A stretch of 64,000 nucleotides of DNA from Pseudolysinimonas sp. GTDB lineage: Bacteria > Actinomycetota > Actinomycetes > Actinomycetales > Microbacteriaceae. The stretch spans positions 1,216 through 65,215 of the forward strand of contig JBDSSQ010000042.1 of assembly GCA_039928695.1 (NCBI GenBank), given 5' to 3'. Positions 7,450 through 63,526 of the stretch are shown one piece after another; position 1 is the first letter of the stretch, and each line of letters starts with the position of its first letter. The translations under genes were made by a program, and so were the position numbers. The notes beneath the pieces were generated by a model that saw nothing but the letters and a program-made list of their open reading frames with translations, had not been told where the DNA came from and did not search any database.

Positions 7450-8601
7450 TCAGGGCTCTCTCCCAAACAGTTGGGCTTGTAAAGCCCGAAACATCTCATC
7501 GAGTTTGACCAAGTGGCGGTGGTGTTTCTCGCGAACCGTCGAGAGCGCAGTAACTGCGGACGCGAACCGTTCCTGTAAGTCGAGAGGAGGCAAAGGCACT
7601 TGAATGCCGTTCACGACCTCCTGATTGACCTTGTATGTGCCATTCGTCGTTCGAGCACCCGATTCAATCTGTCTCCGAATCTCAGTGCGCTGCCAGACAG
7701 CCTCGAGATAGGCCCCCACTACGCATTCGGCCAAGCGCGCCGCGATGATCGTGTCCGGGAAGGCCACAGCTGGCATGGTTTCTGTAGCCAGCACCCCCAC
7801 TCCTACCATCGACTTGTTCCCGTTCCCTCGGCAGATCAGGAAATCTCCGGCACGGACGGTCTGACGAACATCATGCAGAGCTGCGAAGGTCGACTCTTTG
7901 ACAGCGCTTGCGTCAAACGACCCTCTAGTGATCGCCGAGAGGGTGAGCACCTTCCCCATGTGCTTTCCGGATGCTGAAGGGGAAATCCCATTCCTCAGGG
8001 GCTCGGCGAGAAGGTCTGAAAGGAGCACGGTCGACCACTGTCCGCCCAAGAACGAACTCTCGAACAGGGCGGTTTCGATCGCGTGAATCAGTTCTAGGGC
8101 ATGGCGGCGCTTGGCGCGGGGCTCGTCCGCTCGGTCGAGGGTGGCTGCGATTCGGCGTTGTTCGGGGAGGGGTGGGAGGGGGATCTCGACCTCACGAACG
8201 ATGCCTTCCGACACGGCCGGATAGCTTGCCCCAGTCGCACGTCGCACCAGCTGACTGACGAAATTGGGAGACCTTACGAATTGAAATAAGTAGCGAGAGT
8301 CGAGTAGTTCGGCTTTCGCTCTTAGAACGGAGAAACCCGTCGACGCAATGGCGTCGCCAAGGTGCTCCGGCACGACCGCCACGCCGTTTAAGTTTGGCCG
8401 CACAGTCGACACCAAAATGTCCCCAGCGCGGACTCGCTGACGCGCTCGGCTCGGAGCGTCGGCAACGGCGACATTGCTCGGCGCGACAACCTGCTTGAGT
8501 TCGGAATTTACGGAGGACAAGTCGATGTAAATGAAGGCGGGGCTATCAGGATCAGGACCGGCCTTCGAGACTGGCTGGACCAGGGTGCCGAGAGGCGTCA
8601 C
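7450..8601 (-). CDS. hsdS: Type I R-M specificity subunit (HsdS), two target-recognition domains
   Basis: The conserved spacer motifs ...IPLPPLPEQRRIAATLD... and ...VPLPPLDLQERFASAV... each follow a variable TRD. The GTG start overlaps the hsdM stop (GTGA, 8598-8601). Confidence 0.9.
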   Translation of the reverse strand: MTPLGTLVQPVSKAGPDPDSPAFIYIDLSSVNSELKQVVAPSNVAVADAPSRARQRVRAGDILVSTVRPNLNGVAVVPEHLGDAIASTGFSVLRAKAELLDSRYLFQFVRSPNFVSQLVRRATGASYPAVSEGIVREVEIPLPPLPEQRRIAATLDRADEPRAKRRHALELIHAIETALFESSFLGGQWSTVLLSDLLAEPLRNGISPSASGKHMGKVLTLSAITRGSFDASAVKESTFAALHDVRQTVRAGDFLICRGNGNKSMVGVGVLATETMPAVAFPDTIIAARLAECVVGAYLEAVWQRTEIRRQIESGARTTNGTYKVNQEVVNGIQVPLPPLDLQERFASAVTALSTVREKHHRHLVKLDEMFRALQAQLFGREP

Positions 8602-10106
8602 GGCGCCGCGCTCAACGTCCTGGCCAACGCTGCCGTCGCATCCATGATCTCCTGCTCCAGCACCATCAACTCAGCGAGGATTTCCTCGGGCGGGCGGTGC
8701 TCGACGACCTCGTGCTCGACTTCCTTGTAGCGGTTGAGCGACAGGTCGTAGCCCTGGGCGACGATCTCGTCGTGCGGCACCAGGAACGACTGCGCGGTGC
8801 GCGGGCGCGACAGCTCGGGGCTCTCGGGGCTGGCGAGGGTCTGCCACCGGTCCACGACATCCGGCAGGTCGTTCGCCTCGATCGGGGTTCGCTTGTCGTC
8901 GAGGGTGAAACCGTCGGCCTGCACCTCGTAGAACCAGACGTTGTCGGTGCCGCCCGAGCTGGTCTTCTGGAAGAGCAGGATCGCCGTCGAGACTCCGGTG
9001 TACGGCTTGAAGGTGCCGCTCGGCAGCTTGATCACCGCCTCGAGTTTGTGGTCGTCGACCAGCATCCGGCGCAGCGCTTTGTGCGCGTTGGATGACCCGA
9101 ACAGCACACCGTCGGGCACGATCACCGCGGCGCGTCCGCCGTTCTTGAGCAGTCGGATCATCAGCGCCAGAAACAGCAGCTCGGTCTTCTTCGTCTTCAC
9201 GATCTGCAGCAGGTCTTTGGCCGTCGTTTCGTAGTCGAGGCTGCCGGCGAAGGGCGGATTCGCGAGCACGAGGGTGTAGCCGCCCTCAGCCAGCGCGTGC
9301 TCTTCGGCGAGCGAGTCGCGGCGCTCGATCGTCGGGTTCTCGATGCCGTGCAGCAGCATGTTCATGCTTCCGATCCGGCTCATGGACGCGTCGGAGTCGT
9401 AGCCGGTGAACGCGACCCGGTTGAAGTGGTCGCGGCTGGCAGCATCCCTCCAGATCTCAGGATGGTGGTCGCGCAGGTAATGCGCCGCCTCCATCAAGAA
9501 GCCCGCCGTGCCCGCGGCCGGGTCGATGATCTTGTCACCGGGGGTCGGCGCCGTCATGTCGACCATCAGCTTGATGATGTGCCGCGAGGTGCGGAACTGC
9601 CCGTTCTGCCCCGAGGTCGCCAGCTTGCTCAGCATGTATTCGTAGATGTCGCCCTTGGCGTCGATGTCATCCATGGGGATGTCATTGAGCAGGTCGACCA
9701 CCTTGCTCAGCAGCGCGGGGGTCGGGATGGTGAAGCGCGCGTCTTTCATGTTCGTCGCGAAACTCGACCCCGCCTCGCCCATCCCGCGGATGAACGGGAA
9801 CACGTTCTGGTCGATGACGTCGTACATGTCTTGCGGCGGAAAGTTCTTGAAGTGCGACCAGCGGAGGTCTTGGAAGGGGCGTGGGCGCCGGCCGGAGTCG
9901 TCGGTGCCGTCGGGGAAGACGGGGTTCTCGATCGGGGCCTTGAGCGTGTTCGCCTTGTTCTCGGCGAGGGTGTGCAGCTCGTCGAGACGCTTGATGAACA
10001 GCAGGTAGGTGATCTGCTCGATCACCTCCATCGGGTTGGCGATGCCGCCGCTCCAGAAGGCGTTCCAGACCTTGTCGACCTGGGACTTCAGCTCACCGGT
10101 GACCAT
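8598..10106 (-). CDS. hsdM: Type I R-M N6-adenine DNA methyltransferase (HsdM)
   Basis: It has the HsdM N-terminal domain (VWNAFWSGGIANPMEVIEQITYLLFIKRLDE), the SAM motif IIDPAAGTAGFL and the catalytic motif LANPPFAG. Confidence 0.92.
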   Translation of the reverse strand: MVTGELKSQVDKVWNAFWSGGIANPMEVIEQITYLLFIKRLDELHTLAENKANTLKAPIENPVFPDGTDDSGRRPRPFQDLRWSHFKNFPPQDMYDVIDQNVFPFIRGMGEAGSSFATNMKDARFTIPTPALLSKVVDLLNDIPMDDIDAKGDIYEYMLSKLATSGQNGQFRTSRHIIKLMVDMTAPTPGDKIIDPAAGTAGFLMEAAHYLRDHHPEIWRDAASRDHFNRVAFTGYDSDASMSRIGSMNMLLHGIENPTIERRDSLAEEHALAEGGYTLVLANPPFAGSLDYETTAKDLLQIVKTKKTELLFLALMIRLLKNGGRAAVIVPDGVLFGSSNAHKALRRMLVDDHKLEAVIKLPSGTFKPYTGVSTAILLFQKTSSGGTDNVWFYEVQADGFTLDDKRTPIEANDLPDVVDRWQTLASPESPELSRPRTAQSFLVPHDEIVAQGYDLSLNRYKEVEHEVVEHRPPEEILAELMVLEQEIMDATAALARTLSAAP

Positions 10107-58120: not shown

Positions 58121-58585
58121 TCAGCCGTCGGGGAACACTCGTTTGTACGAGCGACCATCGGGCAACGTGACCATCTCGGCACGCAACTGCCCGCGCGAGA
58201 CGCGGAGGTAGATCGCCTGCGCTGTCACGCCGAGTTGCCCGGCCGCCTCGGCCACCGAGAGCCCCGGCAGTTCGGTCGGTTTGCTGCTCGGTCGCTCGCT
58301 CCGCTTGCGGCCGGCCTCGTGGCGCGCGGCGATCTCGGCGTCATCCCCTTGCCATCGCCATCGGGATGCCGCGGGGCTGAGCTGCGCGGCCTGAGCAACG
58401 TCGCTCCAACTCGCGCCCGCTTCGAGCGCGGCCCGCACGGCGGCCAGGGCAGCTGGATCGGCCTCGAGCTCGGCCAGCACCCCGCGGATCGCGGCAACCC
58501 GCGCGAGCGGTGCAGCGGCGGCATCCTCGTCGAGGGCGAGGAGTCGCTCGAGGGCGGCGCGCGTCGTCACGGCGAGGAAGGTCAT
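58121..58585 (-). CDS. Helix-turn-helix protein (excisionase/MerR-like HTH at the C-terminus), third gene of the PIN module
   Basis: MTFLAVTTRAALERLL...ASWSDVAQAAQLSPAAS...LSVAEAAGQLGVTAQAIYLRVSRGQL. Its ATG overlaps the PIN stop (ATGA, 58582-58585). Confidence 0.6.
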   Translation of the reverse strand: MTFLAVTTRAALERLLALDEDAAAAPLARVAAIRGVLAELEADPAALAAVRAALEAGASWSDVAQAAQLSPAASRWRWQGDDAEIAARHEAGRKRSERPSSKPTELPGLSVAEAAGQLGVTAQAIYLRVSRGQLRAEMVTLPDGRSYKRVFPDG

Positions 58586-58974
58586 GGCGCGATCACATCG
58601 ACAGCCAACCCGTGGGATGCCGTGGCAAGCCGTGAGTCGTTGGTCCACAGTTGCCGGCAGCCCGTGAGTTGGGCGGTGGCGAGGTGGAGGGCATCCGGAG
58701 TCCGCAGCCCTTGCCGGGCTCGCAGCTCGGCAGCCCTGAGGTGCTCGGGCACGCCAGCAACGAGCACTCGGAACTGATCGAACGCGTGGCGATAGTGGTC
58801 CGCCAGCGCCAGATCTTCATGCCGAAACGGCCCGACCAGGCACTCCAGCATCACCAGTGGAGCGATCGCGATCACCTCATCGCCCGCCTCTGCGAGACGT
58901 TGCCGTACAGCGTCGCCACGTGCCGAGTCGTCTTCGACGGCGTAGATGACAATGCAGGAGTCGAGATAGATCAC
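58582..58974 (-). CDS. PIN-domain toxin (VapC-like)
   Basis: (V)IYLDSCIVIYAVEDD...LRTPDALHLATAQLTGCRQLWTNDSRL. The GTG at 58974 overlaps the antitoxin stop (GTGA). The track's extension to 59259 overlaps the antitoxin gene. Confidence 0.75.
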   Translation of the reverse strand: MIYLDSCIVIYAVEDDSARGDAVRQRLAEAGDEVIAIAPLVMLECLVGPFRHEDLALADHYRHAFDQFRVLVAGVPEHLRAAELRARQGLRTPDALHLATAQLTGCRQLWTNDSRLATASHGLAVDVIAP

Positions 58975-59231
58975 TCCCAGTCGGCGCGCTCTCGTGCGAT
59001 GCGTTCGTCGAGATCTGCAGACGAGGCCGCCTCGCGGACCGGGGCTGCGTTGGTTGTCAGCCATCGCGCAGCTGCACTGGCGGAATGGACGACCCCCTCG
59101 GCGGTGACAACGGGGACCAACCGAACCACCGGCGTGCCGCGCTTGGCGATCACAACGTCTTCGCCATTGCCCGCCGCGGTCACCAACTGCGAGAGAGTGT
59201 TGCGCGCATCCAAGATGTTGACCGGCTCCAC
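58971..59231 (-). CDS. Phd/YefM-type antitoxin
   Basis: GGGAG RBS and GTG start. (M)EPVNILDARNTLSQLVTAAGNGEDVVIAKRGTPVVRLVPV. Confidence 0.75.
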   Translation of the reverse strand: MEPVNILDARNTLSQLVTAAGNGEDVVIAKRGTPVVRLVPVVTAEGVVHSASAAARWLTTNAAPVREAASSADLDERIARERADWE

Positions 59232-59256
59232 AATGCTCCCTTCGGCGACCGCAGCA

Positions 59257-59282
59257 CACCTGGCTAGGTCACCTGGCTAGGT
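59257..59282. promoter_or_regulatory. Perfect 13-bp tandem direct repeat CACCTGGCTAGGT x2 upstream of the antitoxin gene (candidate operator)
   Basis: Read directly. It lies 26-51 nt upstream of GTG 59231. Confidence 0.4.
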
Positions 59283-59308
59283 TAGCACTCACTCCGCTCC
59301 CCCGGACT

Positions 59309-59325
59309 CGAACATTCAGTGTTCG
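59309..59325 (-). terminator. Short hairpin CGAACA-ttcag-TGTTCG just downstream of the vapC-like gene (candidate terminator)
   Basis: A 6-bp stem and 5-nt loop lie 22 nt past the TAA at 59347. There is no U-tract, so this is weak. Confidence 0.3.
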
Positions 59326-59346
59326 GGCCCGTTTCGTGTCAGACGC

Positions 59347-59718
59347 TTACAGGGTTCGAACGTCGTACGCCCGGCAGCGCTCGTCAGCGGTCACGAACAC
59401 CAGGTCGTCGGTGATCGCCTGCGAGATCAGCATGCGGTCGAACGGATCGCGATGGTGGTGGGGCAAGGTGAGCAGCGGTGCAGCATGCGCGGCCGTGAAA
59501 GGGAGAGAGTTGGCTCCCCACTCCCCCAATCCGGAAACCAATCCGTCGGGAACTGTGAGCTTGTTCAGCCCGACCTTGATAGCCATCTCGGCAAGAGATA
59601 CGGACGATACGAAGATCGTATTTCGCGCATTTCGGATCGCATCGACTTGCGCTCGCGTCAGCCGCCGCTCGTCGAAGCGCGACCACAGCAGCACGTGCGT
59701 GTCGAGCAAGAGCCTCAC
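59347..59718 (-). CDS. PIN-domain toxin (VapC family)
   Basis: MRLLLDTHVLLWSRFDERRLT...IFVSSVSLAEMAIK...HHRDPFDRMLISQAITDDLVFVTADE is the classic VapC/FitB-like pattern. It overlaps the antitoxin gene by 4 nt. Confidence 0.85.
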   Translation of the reverse strand: MRLLLDTHVLLWSRFDERRLTRAQVDAIRNARNTIFVSSVSLAEMAIKVGLNKLTVPDGLVSGLGEWGANSLPFTAAHAAPLLTLPHHHRDPFDRMLISQAITDDLVFVTADERCRAYDVRTL

Positions 59719-59948
59719 TCGCCGTACCAGTCCTTCTCGTCTTGCTCCGTGAAGTCGTCGAAGTCTTCCGACATCCAGATCTGCCCGGCAAAGTCGCCGA
59801 GAACTCGCGGCTCAGTTCGCTGGACGACGGGCGTCAGCCGAGCAATAGGCCGTCCGTTTCGAGAGATCACCACTTCTTCACCCGCCTCCACTTCGGTCAG
59901 CAGCTTGGACAGCGACGTCTTCGCTTCATACACGCTCACCATCCGCAT
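59715..59948 (-). CDS. Phd/YefM-type antitoxin
   Basis: MRMVSVYEAKTSLSKLLTEVEAGEEVVISRNGRPIARLTPV...GQIWMSEDFDDFTEQDEKDWYGE. Confidence 0.85.
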   Translation of the reverse strand: MRMVSVYEAKTSLSKLLTEVEAGEEVVISRNGRPIARLTPVVQRTEPRVLGDFAGQIWMSEDFDDFTEQDEKDWYGE

Positions 59949-59966
59949 GAGCCGATCTTAGCGATT

Positions 59967-59984
59967 TTGGTCAAATCTGACCAA
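59967..59984. promoter_or_regulatory. Inverted repeat TTGGTCA-aatc-TGACCAA upstream of the Phd/PIN pair (candidate operator), overlapping the stop of the upstream gene
   Basis: Read directly. It lies 19-36 nt upstream of ATG 59948. Confidence 0.4.
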
Positions 59985-60396
59985 CATCTTCCGGCCCGAT
60001 CCACCGCAGACCGGCGTCGTGGCAGATGAGTGGCCCACGCAGTGGCACTCCGGCCAGTTGGCATGCTTCCGCCGCGAGAGCGAGCCACTCGCGGTCAGAG
60101 GTGCTGATCGAATCCGAACCGGGGCGCTCAAGTACGAAGACGACGGATGTGGCATCCAACTCGTCGACAAGGTCGCCGATGAAGTGGGCGATGGTCTCGG
60201 TATGACGTCTGCCGGGACGGCGCGGGATCGACGAGGGCATCAGCAGCGGCAACTGGAAGGACTCCTCGTCGAGAAACATCAACCAGAGTTGCCGCCGCAT
60301 GGCCCGCTCGAGAAGCGCGACAACGCGATCTCGAACGGCGTCATCTGTGTCGAGAGGGATGTTGTCGACATCGGCAAAAGAGGGAGGCGTGTGCAT
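59971..60396 (-). CDS. Hypothetical 141-aa protein; the C-terminal half is laid out like a RadC/JAB (MPN) domain with the HxH metal ligands replaced
   Basis: ...LWLMFLDEESFQLPLLM...ATSVVFVLERPGSDSISTSDREWLALAAEACQLAGVPLRGPLICHDAGLRWIG compares with the RadC pattern ..f.vl.LD..n.l.....a..vIl.HNHPSG...PS..D...T..L..A....gi.llDH.i. The comparison was made by eye. The RBS is weak. Confidence 0.45.
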   Translation of the reverse strand: MHTPPSFADVDNIPLDTDDAVRDRVVALLERAMRRQLWLMFLDEESFQLPLLMPSSIPRRPGRRHTETIAHFIGDLVDELDATSVVFVLERPGSDSISTSDREWLALAAEACQLAGVPLRGPLICHDAGLRWIGPEDVGQI

Positions 60397-60491
60397 CGCG
60401 CCAGCTTTGCGACCGCGATGGTGGGGTATGGGCGAGAGTTTGCCAACTGTGGACGCTCGACAACAGTCGTGCGGTCAGGAGGAACTGAGCG

Positions 60492-61085
60492 TCACTCCCC
60501 CTGGAACCACGGCGGGTACACCGCCACCTTCGGCGCCGCTCCCCCGACATCGGCGAGCAGCTGGCGCACCAGGTCGCGCACCGGGTCGTTGGCGACGCCG
60601 ACCAGGGTGATGGCCGAGAAGGGGACGGGAGCCGCGGCCAGCAGTTCGGCATCCAACAGTTCGGGGTCGAGCGCGTATGTTGCCCGCAGCAACGCGGTTC
60701 CGGCGTCGCCCGCGGCGAAACGGGTGGCGGGAGCCGCCGCATCCCCGTTGGCGAACAGCACGTCGGGGCCGACGGCGCCGGCCGAGGTGACCAGGATCAC
60801 GAACTCGAGCGGGTTCGCCGCCCGCGCAGCGTCGGACCAGTGCACGCCTGCCGCACCGCTGCGCAGCTCGTTCCAGCGCGCGGCGTTCGGGCTGAGCTGG
60901 AACGGCACGCGGTCGGCGACGGTTCCGCCGCTGGCGAGCTCGACACTGCGGCGCAGCTCGCGCGTGGTGGCCGAGCTGACGTCGACCTCGGGTGAGGCAT
61001 CCGCCCGAATGGCCTCATCGATCACGATCGCTTCGAGATTGTGTAGGTGCGTCACGTGGTAGACGCGCTGCGTGTTGAGCAGCAT
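60492..61085 (-). CDS. DarT-like ADP-ribosyltransferase (DUF4433 family); possible N-terminal extension to TTG 61265
   Basis: MLLNTQRVYHVTHLHNLEAIV..., ...VADRVPFQLSPNAARW..., ...LFANGDAAAPATRF..., ...DAELLAAAPVPFSAITLVGV...VAVYPPWF match the conserved DarT blocks (YHiTH..NL..I; VPFYF.PR.PM; FTDRH; AEFLV...P...i..IGV). An in-frame TTG at 61265 has AAGGAG (61273-61278) 7 nt upstream. It would add 60 aa, including AECIHGFEGALCDIC. Confidence 0.6.
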   Translation of the reverse strand: MLLNTQRVYHVTHLHNLEAIVIDEAIRADASPEVDVSSATTRELRRSVELASGGTVADRVPFQLSPNAARWNELRSGAAGVHWSDAARAANPLEFVILVTSAGAVGPDVLFANGDAAAPATRFAAGDAGTALLRATYALDPELLDAELLAAAPVPFSAITLVGVANDPVRDLVRQLLADVGGAAPKVAVYPPWFQGE

Positions 61086-61282
61086 CGTCGGCCGCGAACT
61101 GGTGCGCGGAGCCTGAACGCGCGGCGCCGGCGTGCCATTCGCACTTCGGGATGCTGCGGGGCGACGAGCCGTCGTGGTCGCCGCGCGCCGCACCGGCTCA
61201 GGTGCCTGACGCGGGAAGCAGATGTCGCACAGCGCACCTTCGAAGCCGTGGATGCACTCTGCCAAAGGGAAACTCCTTGTTG

Positions 61283-61296
61283 CTGGAAGATTCCAG
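61283..61296. promoter_or_regulatory. 14-bp palindrome CTGGAAGATTCCAG immediately upstream of the AAGGAG/TTG of the DarT-like gene
   Basis: Read directly. It lies within the ~300-bp gap between the endonuclease stop (61388) and the DarT-like ORF. Confidence 0.35.
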
Positions 61297-61387
61297 GTTA
61301 CGCCAGTGGGGGCGAGGGTGCGTCGGGGCGTCCGTCGGAATGCTCGAGTTCCAGGTGTTCCGTCGAGCTCGCGGTCAGTTCCTCTCG

Positions 61388-62320
61388 CTAGCCAGCAGCT
61401 GGTTCCGGCGACACGGGCACTCCGAGTGCAGTTTGAATGGCCTTCTTGTAGACGTTTTCGTCTGGAAGAGTCACGTTGTTGAAGGCTTCCTGAAGCTTGT
61501 AGACCGTTGTCGATCGCACCGTTTCCGATTTGAGCGGAAGGGACTCGCCATCCACCACCGGCACAAATAGGTCGAGGTCGTAGGCCATGAAGGTGATTGA
61601 CGCCGGTTGGAGCGCGTATGTGATGAGTCCTTCTTGCCCACCCAAGCGCCGCATTATTCGCTCGTAGACGGGAACCGGGCTCACAAAAAACAATCCCTTC
61701 CTGCAAAGCTCTTCGCGCTGAAGCACCTGGCCTTTGTAGATCAACTGGGGAAGGATCCGCTTGTTTACGTTCTCCCAATTCAGTCCCACGCTCGACTTGA
61801 CTACTTCGCGGGATTCAAGCAAGGCATCGCGACTGTCGTGATAGTTGCCGGTCGTATCAATCGTCTGGACTTCGACGGCCACGAACTCAACGAGACGGCC
61901 CATGCCATCTAGGAGGGCCAAGATCCAGTCAACGAAGTACGAGTTCATCCCGTCCTTCTGAGGCAAACGAAGTTCGCCACCCCACCGCTTCCCAAACACT
62001 GCGACAACGGCTGACCCGAGCTTCATTGCCTCGGTGGCCGCAGTTCGTCCAGGTTTCAGGAGTAGCCCAGGCGTGAATGCCCTGTCCGCGACGTCCTGAA
62101 GTATTCGATACTCATTTGCATAGAGCCTGATTGGGCAGCAGATAACTGGAGCCGACGTCACCGGCTTGACGGTACAGACACCTGAGATCGTTCCATCGTT
62201 CAGTGTCTTCTCGCACGTATCCCCAAGGAATGGACACGTTTGCTCATGCGCGCCTTGGGCGGCGATCTCGGATCGGTCCGTGCCGCGGTAGCCGAAAATC
62301 TCGTAGACGGTTCCCGTCAA
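61388..62320 (-). CDS. Type II restriction endonuclease, NotI-family-like (Cys cluster + D...ExQ PD-(D/E)XK variant)
   Basis: ...YEIFGYRG...TCPFLGDTCEKT...SGVCTV...VICCPIRLY..., ...GGELRLPQKDGMNSYFVDWILAL...VEFVAVEVQTIDTTGNY..., ...NVNKRILPQLIYKG. These parallel what I recall of NotI (FFGHRVYP..TCPFL..GVCVV..LVCPNRAL; FSFDWTL..LEIQTMDFHGSY). The TTG start abuts the methylase stop. The region is visibly more A/T-rich than the surrounding DNA. Confidence 0.65.
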   Translation of the reverse strand: MTGTVYEIFGYRGTDRSEIAAQGAHEQTCPFLGDTCEKTLNDGTISGVCTVKPVTSAPVICCPIRLYANEYRILQDVADRAFTPGLLLKPGRTAATEAMKLGSAVVAVFGKRWGGELRLPQKDGMNSYFVDWILALLDGMGRLVEFVAVEVQTIDTTGNYHDSRDALLESREVVKSSVGLNWENVNKRILPQLIYKGQVLQREELCRKGLFFVSPVPVYERIMRRLGGQEGLITYALQPASITFMAYDLDLFVPVVDGESLPLKSETVRSTTVYKLQEAFNNVTLPDENVYKKAIQTALGVPVSPEPAAG

Positions 62321-63526
62321 TCAGACCACACGCCTCAAAACGTTGCGGCTGACTCCCAGAGCAGCCGAGATCGACTGACCGACGGCGGCAGCAAGGAATG
62401 GAGGCACGGCGTTCCCCACCTGTTCGTATTGGTCCACCCGCGACCCAGTGAATCGATACGTGTCGGGGAAGGACTGCAATCTTGCGGCTTCGCGAACAGT
62501 GAACGCCCGGTCTTGCTCGTAGTGGAAGTAGGCGCCCCAGTGCGGATCGCATTTCGTAAGGATCGTTGATGCCAATCCATCGGGATCGACCCGACCGTAA
62601 CGCTTCGTGTGGTCAGATCGACGTGCCCCTTGCATTCCCTTGGGAAGAAGTTCGAACGGGATATCAGTCCAGTTGCCGCCCTGCGGAATGTGCCTCAAAC
62701 GCTCAAGGTTGATCCGGCTAAGTCGAGCAGCCTCATGATTGTGAACTCCATCACTGCCTCCGCGCAGTGCGCGTTGAAAGTCGTTGCTGGCCGGGCCACC
62801 ATAGGACTTGATTCCGTCCCCCGATTCACCGTTCAAGAGGCCGGGGAGATCGCCAATAGCCTCTCGAACTGAGGTATAGCTAGGCAGTTCTACGGACCTT
62901 GGCAACGCCACAATGTTGCGACCGCCAAAGCGAGATGTGAAGTTCACCCGCATTGGAGCGTGACGCTTGGGGTCCGGGAAAGCGGCGAGCGGGTCAGTTC
63001 CGTCGCGAAGTGCAAGGACAATCGTCCTCCAACGTGTTTGAGGAACGCCATAGTGAGGTGCGTAAAGGATTTGGACGTCGGCGCGATAACCCAGATTCTG
63101 AAGGGACTCCATGATTGCGTGGAGAGTTGCACCGCCCTCGAATGAAACGAGTCCCGGCACATTCTCAATAAGAACCGACTTCGGCTGGAACTCATCGACA
63201 AACCGCAAATACTCTTTGAAGAGGTGATTGCGACGATCTTCCGCGCTGCGCTGCGGTGCGTTGATCGAGAACCCCTGACAAGGCGGGCCGCCAGCCATCA
63301 GATCCAACTCGCCCCGATCTAGCCCGAGTTGCTGACGAATTCGTGCGGCATCGACGGTGCGGACATCACTACTATCAACGATCGCGTCCGGGTGATTTAG
63401 GGCGAACGTCGCCGCATAGGTAGGGACGACCTCATTCGCATACAGAGTGCGAAATCCGGCCTCGCTGAGTCCCTCGGACAACCCTCCTGCTCCCGCAAAA
63501 AGGTCGACCATGGTCAGTTCGGGCAT
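62321..63526 (-). CDS. DNA (cytosine-5)-methyltransferase
   Basis: GGAAGGA RBS. Motif I is DLFAGAGGLSEGL, motif IV GGPPCQGFS, motif VI LIENVPGL, motif VIII QTRWR. Also present are ...RLQSFPD... and motif X GNAVPPFL. Confidence 0.92.
   Translation of the reverse strand: MPELTMVDLFAGAGGLSEGLSEAGFRTLYANEVVPTYAATFALNHPDAIVDSSDVRTVDAARIRQQLGLDRGELDLMAGGPPCQGFSINAPQRSAEDRRNHLFKEYLRFVDEFQPKSVLIENVPGLVSFEGGATLHAIMESLQNLGYRADVQILYAPHYGVPQTRWRTIVLALRDGTDPLAAFPDPKRHAPMRVNFTSRFGGRNIVALPRSVELPSYTSVREAIGDLPGLLNGESGDGIKSYGGPASNDFQRALRGGSDGVHNHEAARLSRINLERLRHIPQGGNWTDIPFELLPKGMQGARRSDHTKRYGRVDPDGLASTILTKCDPHWGAYFHYEQDRAFTVREAARLQSFPDTYRFTGSRVDQYEQVGNAVPPFLAAAVGQSISAALGVSRNVLRRVV

Follow-up and report, generated by a model that had tools for sequence, protein, structure and literature searches.

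A stretch of 64,000 nucleotides (nt) from Pseudolysinimonas sp. (assembly GCA_039928695.1, contig JBDSSQ010000042.1, positions 1,216 to 65,215; "the window" in what follows) encodes a DarT-like ADP-ribosyltransferase (ART) that begins with a putative zinc knuckle and is followed on the same strand by a gene for a small protein of 141 amino acids (aa). To our knowledge, every characterized DarT is a toxin that is held by a hydrolase encoded beside it, and the original prediction for this locus, made from the letters of the DNA, had suggested that the two genes may be a toxin/immunity or anti-phage pair with a new type of antitoxin. Slightly favored here (at a probability of about 0.55) is the reading that the DarT-like protein is a resident, antitoxin-less, DarT2-like enzyme of the Microbacteriaceae with a conserved control element of its own, and that the small gene is incidental cargo. 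The gene for the enzyme is made up as follows:

60492 to 61265, minus strand: gene for the zinc-knuckle DarT-like ADP-ribosyltransferase, 257 aa, TTG start, stop codon included (Pfam PF14487, 8.7e-11)
61273 to 61278, minus strand: Shine-Dalgarno sequence AAGGAG, read directly, 7 nt before the TTG; close relatives have a purine-rich site at the same place
61209 to 61265, minus strand: N-terminal CHCC knuckle, putatively zinc-binding, residues 1-19, MAECIHGFEGALCDICFPR; C4, H6, C13 and C16 are found in 86-87 of 87 aligned loci
61086 to 61208, minus strand: low-complexity Ala/Arg/Pro/Thr linker, predicted to be disordered, residues 20-60; the predicted local distance difference test (pLDDT) is below 50 for residues 23-58, and both length and sequence vary among homologues
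60495 to 61085, minus strand: ART (DarT) catalytic domain, residues 61-257, from hidden Markov model (HMM) alignment to 7omv and 7yk3

By profile and predicted fold, the 257-aa protein is a member of the DarT family, as the original prediction had it. Read from the ATG at 61085, the open reading frame (ORF) at 60492-61085 on the minus strand matches PF14487 (DarT/DUF4433) with an E-value of 3e-11 and 43.8 bits, against a gathering cut-off of 22.5, over profile positions 1-200 of 201, and the PADLOC DarT model with 1.9e-16. A profile built from 25 relatives finds the DarT structures of Mycobacterium tuberculosis (7yk3, 3e-11) and Thermus (7omv, 2e-9) in the PDB. The AlphaFold2 model of the full-length protein has an overall pLDDT of 83.5 and exceeds 90 everywhere in the ART domain; its best Foldseek match is the DNA-bound Thermus DarT 7omy (E 6.6e-15, template modeling (TM) score 0.63/0.77), with M. 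tuberculosis DarT 7yk3 at TM 0.69 and DarT1 clearly lower (TM 0.55, E 8.5e-6). The equivalog level of NCBIfam toxin_DarT is not reached (42.5 bits against a cut-off of 150), and the protein is, judged by its sequence, a family member but no equivalog of the DarT2 toxin. Public records name its homologues only as "DarT family" or DUF4433, and a literature search for DarT with RadC, for orphan DarT and for DUF4433 returned no description of a zinc-knuckle DarT subfamily, of a DarT zinc knuckle or of a link between DarT and RadC.

Where does the protein begin? The TTG codon at 61265-61263 and the AAGGAG that precedes it can be read directly from the sequence, and the TTG is the true start, because the homologues are of similar length and share an N-terminus with the four conserved Cys and His residues. 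Homologues with 93-95% identity are 255-258 aa long, and most homologues are about 250 aa, with the common N-terminal pattern M-AECIHGFxxGLCDxCFPR. Both the upstream TTG start and the Cys/His-containing extension that it adds, proposed before any homologue had been compared, are thus borne out. The four residues have the spacing of a knuckle (C-x-H-x6-C-x2-C) and would be expected to bind zinc; the pLDDT of the model is only about 67 at this place. Throughout the sequence collected, the motif C-x-H-G-x(4-8)-C-x2-C is confined to DarT-like ORFs.

The core of the active site is intact. Aligned by HMM to 7omv and 7yk3 (Thermus residue numbers from PMC9967889), the NAD-site residues H13, T15 and N19 of Thermus DarT correspond to H70, T72 and N76 (N76 being read from the window sequence alone), R51 corresponds to R105, and the catalytic E160 falls on E207, the Glu of the "DAELL" block that had been picked out as catalytic from the letters. 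All 87 aligned loci keep H70, T72, R105 and E207, those with the small gene as well as those without it.

At least 346 species genomes carry a zinc-knuckle DarT. The scan took one genome per species and gave 346 loci, the best 80 of which were inspected; counts of residue conservation refer to 87 aligned loci and those of the upstream element to 86. Almost all of the best 80 loci come from Microbacteriaceae, including Pseudolysinimonas, Lysinimonas, Protaetiibacter, Homoserinibacter, Amnibacterium, Frigoribacterium, Salinibacterium, Rhodoglobus, Herbiconiux, Naasia and Frondihabitans. There is no universal neighbor, and the context differs by lineage: the gene lies between tuf and rpsJ-rplC in Frigoribacterium, precedes an RNase H gene in Amnibacterium, and stands between genes for a GAF protein and an Eis-like acetyltransferase in Salinibacterium, while the framework in the clade of the window is GAF, Eis-like, 3HCDH, DarT, (SDR), helix-turn-helix (HTH), AMP-binding, His-phosphatase. 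These syntenic chromosomal sites suggest that the zinc-knuckle DarT is, apparently, vertically inherited. Overall, the immediate neighbors of DarT are EF-Tu/S10/L3, RNase H, Eis-like GNAT, the GAF protein, SDR, 3HCDH and the AMP-binding enzyme.

None of the neighborhoods checked supplied a hydrolase. Two relatives were annotated gene by gene with Pfam, L084 over about 2.8 kb before and 4.9 kb after DarT and L150 over 10 kb on each side, and neither showed a Macro, NADAR or ARH gene; none was found among the representative neighbors tested in other genera (S10, RNase H, GNAT, GAF, SDR); and the 25 families listed, of 61 in the Pfam summary of 49 window proteins, include neither Macro nor NADAR. 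Having no adjacent ADP-ribose hydrolase, neither a DarG macrodomain nor NADAR, the zinc-knuckle DarT falls outside the definition of a DarTG system.

Two neighbors recur at some of these loci. Immediately after DarT, 11 loci have a gene for an RNase H (PF00075) whose C-terminus carries a NikA-like ribbon-helix-helix tail (at about +35 to +700 in L027, L046 and further Amnibacterium loci), and the same gene is found divergently upstream of the small gene in 13 loci that have no DarT (L120, L121 and other metagenome loci, at -728 to -105). This recurring third neighbor may reflect an old shared chromosomal neighborhood. A 70-aa MT0933-like "antitoxin" protein (PF14013, 9e-8) is encoded between tuf and DarT in 14 Frigoribacterium-type loci, among L035-L075; it is not adjacent to DarT, lying about 2.0-2.2 kb upstream of the DarT stop.

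The DarT gene also carries what looks like a control region of its own, immediately before its start:

61292 to 61305, minus strand: conserved upstream element TGGCGTAACCTGGA, family consensus TG[A/G]CGTA-N-C-[G/C]-T-N-GA
61283 to 61296, no strand assigned: 14-bp near-palindrome CTGGAA-TC-TTCCAG (CTGGAATCTTCCAG), read directly; it overlaps the 3' part of the element and the start of the 5' untranslated region

Of 86 loci, 71 have the core CGTANNNT no more than 90 nt upstream of the DarT start, and the control windows 310-400 nt upstream never contain it; the positions around it are also conserved (T-3, G-2, C+5, G+9, A+10). Every clade of zinc-knuckle DarT genes has an upstream TG(A/G)CGTA-type element, with no conserved -35. 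In the Protaetiibacter clade the element ends 6 nt before a GTG start, which fits the expectation for a leaderless transcript. From its conserved sequence and position, the element is likely to be the -10 region of the DarT promoter or an operator of this gene. The sequence upstream of it, inspected by eye, fits neither the RecA-NDp nor the LexA-box consensus, and a scan of 59800-61500 for sigma-70 promoters and terminators found no site, a result of little weight in a high-GC actinobacterium. The 14-bp palindrome, which the original prediction had placed just upstream of the gene, is indeed there, its left arm overlapped by the conserved element. Related forms (CCTGGAAnnTTCCGG) are found only in the closest relatives (L001, L002, L006, L007, L084, L087, L150); the palindrome is degraded in L005 and absent in other genera. 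In Protaetiibacter-type loci the element is embedded in a longer dyad, CCACGC-GTGACGTA-GCGTGG.

How regular is the association of DarT with the small gene? The next gene on the same strand does follow after 95 nt and does encode 141 aa, as had been noted:

60397 to 60491, minus strand: spacer of 95 nt that separates the small gene from DarT; a scan found no terminator-like or sigma-70-like site in it
59971 to 60396, minus strand: 141-aa protein with a predicted RadC fold and no JAB metal site (the "ERPG" family; AlphaFold2 and Foldseek), variable cargo and no fixed partner of DarT

In a survey of gene neighborhoods, proposed with the original prediction as a check, the two genes do not regularly co-occur and are linked only within two sub-clades. 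Scored by an HMM of the small protein in 4 kb of flank, the small gene is present in 9 of the 80 DarT loci (8 at about 100 nt downstream, one at 1.1 kb); DarT retains its catalytic residues in all 71 loci that lack it. The converse scan of metagenomes, with the small protein as query and 3 kb of flank, gave 63 loci, 38 of them informative: DarT lies upstream in 8, and none was found within 3 kb in the roughly 30 that have enough flank. Clean indels of about 0.5 kb, collinear on both sides, distinguish congeners with and without the small gene (L033 against L015 and L022 against L016, the pairs being Homoserinibacter gongjuensis with H. sp. GY 40078 and two Protaetiibacter species), and DarT is intact on either side of the indel, with E207, R105 and H70. 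The small gene is likewise absent from the closest relatives of the window (L001-L008 and L150, whose DarT regions have 76-88% DNA identity to that of the window): DarT is followed by SDR and the AMP-binding gene in L005 and L150 and directly by a Phd-PIN cassette in L002. A PIN fragment stands between the two genes in L084, widening the gap to 518 nt, and there about 100 nt of upstream sequence move along with the small gene. With such counts, and with congeners differing by a simple indel, the claim of a toxin/immunity pair with a new kind of antitoxin fails the test of co-occurrence that had been set for it.

Seen from the small protein, the picture is similar. An exhaustive profile search (E ≤ 1e-3) gives a family of 590 representatives across the Actinomycetota, with a near-invariant signature (W38, P54, E90-R91-x-G93, G129); named members come from Plantibacter, Herbiconiux and Nakamurella, and all are annotated "hypothetical protein". 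They occur mostly in housekeeping contexts, and contexts without DarT include DSBA|small|YbaK near proS and dnaG, BacA|small|PAC2, fmt-rsmB|small|rpe-his and a Nakamurella locus. In a neighbor-joining tree the DarT-linked small genes form two clades, that of the window and that of Protaetiibacter and Homoserinibacter; all other clades are unlinked, and L061, with a gap of 1094 nt, branches outside both. The small protein therefore appears, from its sequence relatives, to belong to a separate Actinomycetota RadC-fold family and not to be the antitoxin of DarT.

What kind of protein is it? It has no match in Pfam, NCBIfam or PADLOC, and hence none to a macrodomain or NADAR profile, in line with the original prediction, which had denied DarT a DarG or NADAR neighbor. 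That prediction had also described the C-terminal half as RadC/JAB-like, and here the fold agrees: the AlphaFold model (pLDDT 89.1) has as its best Foldseek match the RadC protein 2qlc (E 2e-5, TM 0.64/0.70), followed by weaker matches to JAMM/MPN chains, and 8 of the 9 best matches among viral models are named RadC or MPN (the third-ranked carries no name). The sequence profiles do not agree. Pfam RadC (PF04002) does not match the window protein and reaches only E 0.11 in 2 of 50 family members, a PDB profile search with the family gave no sequence match, and hhalign of the family against 2qlc, YicR and YeeS gave a probability of 0.6% (E 0.1). This non-significant alignment is nevertheless collinear over 99 columns: the JAMM Glu is matched by R35, H-N-H by L89-E90-R91, the Ser by S98 and the Asp by D101, which accords with the earlier observation that L-E-R stands in place of the JAB HxH. 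With the Glu and both His ligands replaced (R35, L89, R91), catalytic zinc binding of the JAMM type would be impossible. Going by the model, the protein is best assigned to a family that has the RadC fold but no longer the metal site, and it is not filed here as a member of the RadC family. Two of 50 family members match the actinobacterial domain DUF4192 weakly (best E 4e-4), which may indicate a remote relationship.

The surroundings of the two genes, determined by clustering all ORFs and checking representatives against Pfam, are as the original prediction had described them, with a type II restriction-modification (R-M) cassette upstream and two PIN toxin-antitoxin (TA) modules downstream:

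61388 to 63526, minus strand: type II R-M cassette, C5 methylase at 62321-63526 (Pfam DNA_methylase, 4.7e-64) and NotI-like endonuclease at 61388-62320 (Pfam NotI, 2.4e-10)
58582 to 59948, minus strand: two Phd/YefM-PIN modules (Pfam), at 59715-59948/59347-59718 and 58971-59231/58582-58977
58121 to 58648, minus strand: conserved HTH-like protein of 175 aa with a C-terminal HTH-like segment (sub-threshold HTH Pfam matches only)

GC content at third codon positions (GC3) is distributed among these genes as follows:

DarT: 0.84-0.87
AMP-binding gene (flanking, native): 0.87; window genes mostly 0.8-0.9
Small gene: 0.71
TA genes: 0.72-0.77
R-M genes: 0.61-0.67

In codon composition DarT is host-like, whereas the small gene, both Phd-PIN modules and the R-M genes have the look of acquired cargo. 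The flanking framework has 83-87% DNA identity to Pseudolysinimonas contigs from metagenome-assembled genomes such as L005, which points to a Pseudolysinimonas-like genome of the Microbacteriaceae as the source. The R-M cassette is an insertion peculiar to this genome; L087 and L150 lack it and have 3HCDH immediately before DarT; both Phd/YefM-PIN modules are variably present around DarT in L002, L006, L007 and L084. An inverted repeat, TTGGTCA-N4-TGACCAA (59967-59984), overlaps the last codons and the stop of the small gene. It also precedes the homologous Phd-PIN cassette in L002, a locus that lacks the small gene, and is for that reason probably a Phd-PIN operator; by the same comparison it probably marks the boundary of the cassette inside the last codons of the small gene. 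The simplest picture is one of a resident DarT beside a cargo hotspot, with R-M genes on one side and the small gene and two Phd-PIN modules on the other.

The HTH-like protein is the syntenic downstream neighbor of DarT in the Pseudolysinimonas group and belongs to a cluster found in 13 loci. (The protein of the window, which lies outside the range clustered there, was assigned to it by eye on a shared C-terminal motif.) Its gene starts no more than about 50 nt from the DarT stop in L010, L014, L017, L023, L028, L031 and L052 and about 0.9-1.0 kb downstream in L004 and L007. The cluster is also seen 1.2-1.8 kb downstream of the small gene in 9 loci without DarT. An antisense ORF of 347 aa (60019-61062, plus strand, GC3 0.78) spans both DarT and the small gene; it is preferred by gene calling on GC3 minus GC2, but was rejected as a shadow ORF typical of high-GC DNA. 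Farther away, the window holds type I R-M genes (HsdR at 4-2296; the scan of 49 window proteins also turned up an N6 methylase). The ORFs at 4.3-11.4 kb have mostly lower GC3 (0.66-0.71; 0.92 at 8598-10106), and this stretch, toward the opposite end of the window, may be another island of acquired DNA. Encoded between 11 and 55 kb are Ku, LigD (with domains for primase-polymerase, phosphoesterase and ligase), three proteins each with DUF2510 and with GGDEF, and two further PIN proteins.

How could a cell live with a DarT that has no antitoxin? On the reading favored here, the zinc-knuckle DarT would carry out an NAD+-dependent ADP-ribosylation of a base in single-stranded DNA (ssDNA) by DarT2-type chemistry, R105 polarizing NAD+ and deprotonating the base and E207 completing the reaction. 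Tight transcriptional control through the conserved TGACGTA-type element would keep the enzyme harmless, the knuckle and linker perhaps contributing to its restraint, and an unlinked hydrolase might reverse the product. A candidate would be a macrodomain of the SCO6735/TARG1 type, since macrodomains of the SCO6735 type reverse the thymidine ADP-ribosylation made by DarT and are widespread in Actinobacteria (PMC9411070).

Several observations weigh against this reading, some of them touching the chemistry and others the small gene. Neither the window nor the fetched loci yielded such a macrodomain, and that these genomes hold an unlinked macrodomain or NADAR hydrolase is an assumption. In the active site, Thermus Y71 is replaced by Q123 (in a variable column with Q, S, Y, A or F), M78 by R130, H119 by D175 and H65 by A117, as placed by HMM alignment. 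Y71 stacks the nicotinamide and H119 locks the thymine in Thermus DarT (PMC9967889). With the Arg, Glu, His and Thr kept and these residues not, the core chemistry of DarT2 is plausible, yet the active site is no copy of DarT2, and with several residues replaced, activity on DNA thymidine is an extrapolation. It is thus conceivable, although we consider it improbable, that the zinc-knuckle DarT is no DNA toxin at all, but acts on another substrate (a protein, an RNA or a small molecule) or has very low activity, the small gene being unrelated; no antitoxin would then be needed, because the substrate has diverged or the activity is very low, and the enzyme would serve an ordinary housekeeping or regulatory role. 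The loss of the Y71, M78 and H119 equivalents and the score far below the toxin_DarT cut-off would agree with this, as would an added zinc knuckle that could redirect targeting and an apparently vertical retention throughout the family in core settings, tuf|DarT|rpsJ among them, which is unlike that of mobile TA modules. Against another substrate stand the DarT2-defining equivalents of R51 and E160 and the NAD-site His and Thr, invariant in every aligned locus, and a best fold match to a DNA-bound DarT (TM 0.77). Moreover, the H119 equivalent is missing from M. tuberculosis DarT in the same HMM alignment, and that enzyme nonetheless modifies thymidine in ssDNA (PMC5179494).

The remaining difficulties for the favored reading concern linkage. 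In both linked clades, every member with a readable context sits downstream of DarT on the same strand, and the gap is 93-133 nt in 16 of 18 DarT-linked loci; such linkage shows more order than pure chance would give, and a lineage-restricted functional link between the small gene and DarT is possible. Furthermore, co-occurrence was scored in the flanks of the loci, and genomes counted as "DarT-only" may hold an unlinked copy of the small gene. One could therefore imagine that a RadC-fold pseudo-enzyme was recruited in the clades of the window and of Protaetiibacter/Homoserinibacter as a non-catalytic neutralizer or modulator of DarT, acting by direct binding or by competition for ssDNA and co-transcribed from the DarT promoter. 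The toxin-first order on one strand, as in darT-darG, the spacer without a terminator and the uniform spacing within two coherent clades would suit such a partner. The confident fold and the invariant surface motifs (W38, P54, E90-R91, G93, D101, W104) indicate a real, selected protein, and there is a parallel of sorts in E. coli, where the RadC-like yeeS adjoins the toxin-antitoxin genes cbeA/cbtA in prophage CP4-44. We nevertheless regard a modulator as unlikely. Within 4 kb of flank, the small gene is missing from 71 of 80 DarT loci, in which DarT keeps all catalytic residues; it comes and goes as a clean indel between congeners, differs from DarT in composition and is cut off from it by a PIN fragment in L084; most members of its family, some of them 53-55% identical, are found in housekeeping contexts remote from any DarT; and inheritance within two clades can account for the adjacency. 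More speculative still in content, and in our view a doubtful proposition, is an apparently vertically inherited, antitoxin-less DarT that would mark the cell's own DNA as a regulated physiological signal (for example during replication or in the control of damage, a role already proposed for DarTG of M. tuberculosis), switched by the promoter/operator element, with pseudo-JAB proteins as non-hydrolytic modulators in some lineages.

Why does this matter? A zinc-knuckle DarT subfamily is apparently kept by a whole bacterial family near genes such as tuf and rpsJ, with its Arg and Glu intact, a new knuckle and no neighboring antitoxin. If the enzyme is active, then either DNA ADP-ribosylation can be tamed by regulation or trans-acting hydrolases alone, or DarT chemistry has been redirected to a new target, and each outcome would widen the known biology of nucleic-acid ADP-ribosylation. 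In addition, an uncharacterized Actinomycetota family of RadC-fold proteins without a metal site is newly defined. Adjacency in a single genome proved poor ground for the idea of a new antitoxin; that claim is weakened, while the conserved orphan DarT, with its knuckle and dedicated upstream element, is a worthwhile and testable lead.

Among known systems, the closest is DarT2 of DarTG2 (Thermus sp. 2.9 / T. aquaticus DarT and M. tuberculosis DarT, Rv0059), which shares with the zinc-knuckle DarT the PF14487 domain, the best structural matches (TM 0.77 and 0.69), the equivalents of H13, T15, N19, R51 and E160, the toxin-first order and a promoter region of its own. The window protein is, however, only 22-25% identical to DarT2 and far under the NCBIfam equivalog threshold, has the extra N-terminal CHCC knuckle and disordered linker, and does not conserve Y71, M78, H119 and H65; unlike in DarTG2, there is no adjacent DarG macrodomain, and the gene is apparently vertical and family-wide instead of being part of a mobile two-gene module. 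DarT1-NADAR (DarTG1, E. coli C7) is an ART of the same Pfam family and a precedent for a DarT partner that is not a macrodomain, but the structural match is weaker (TM 0.55, E 8.5e-6), and NADAR matched neither the downstream protein of the window nor any of the neighbors tested. The RadC/YicR-type JAB (MPN) proteins (2qlc; E. coli YicR and YeeS) resemble the small protein in predicted fold, in the order of secondary structure and in the positions of the JAMM Ser and Asp (S98, D101), whereas the small protein lacks a significant sequence match to them, has its Glu and both His replaced (R35, L89, R91) and forms an E-R-P-G family of its own. Finally, the stand-alone macrodomains of the SCO6735/TARG1 (ALC1-like) type offer a likeness for the proposed control of the zinc-knuckle DarT, as unlinked hydrolases that remove the thymidine ADP-ribose made by DarT (PMC9411070).

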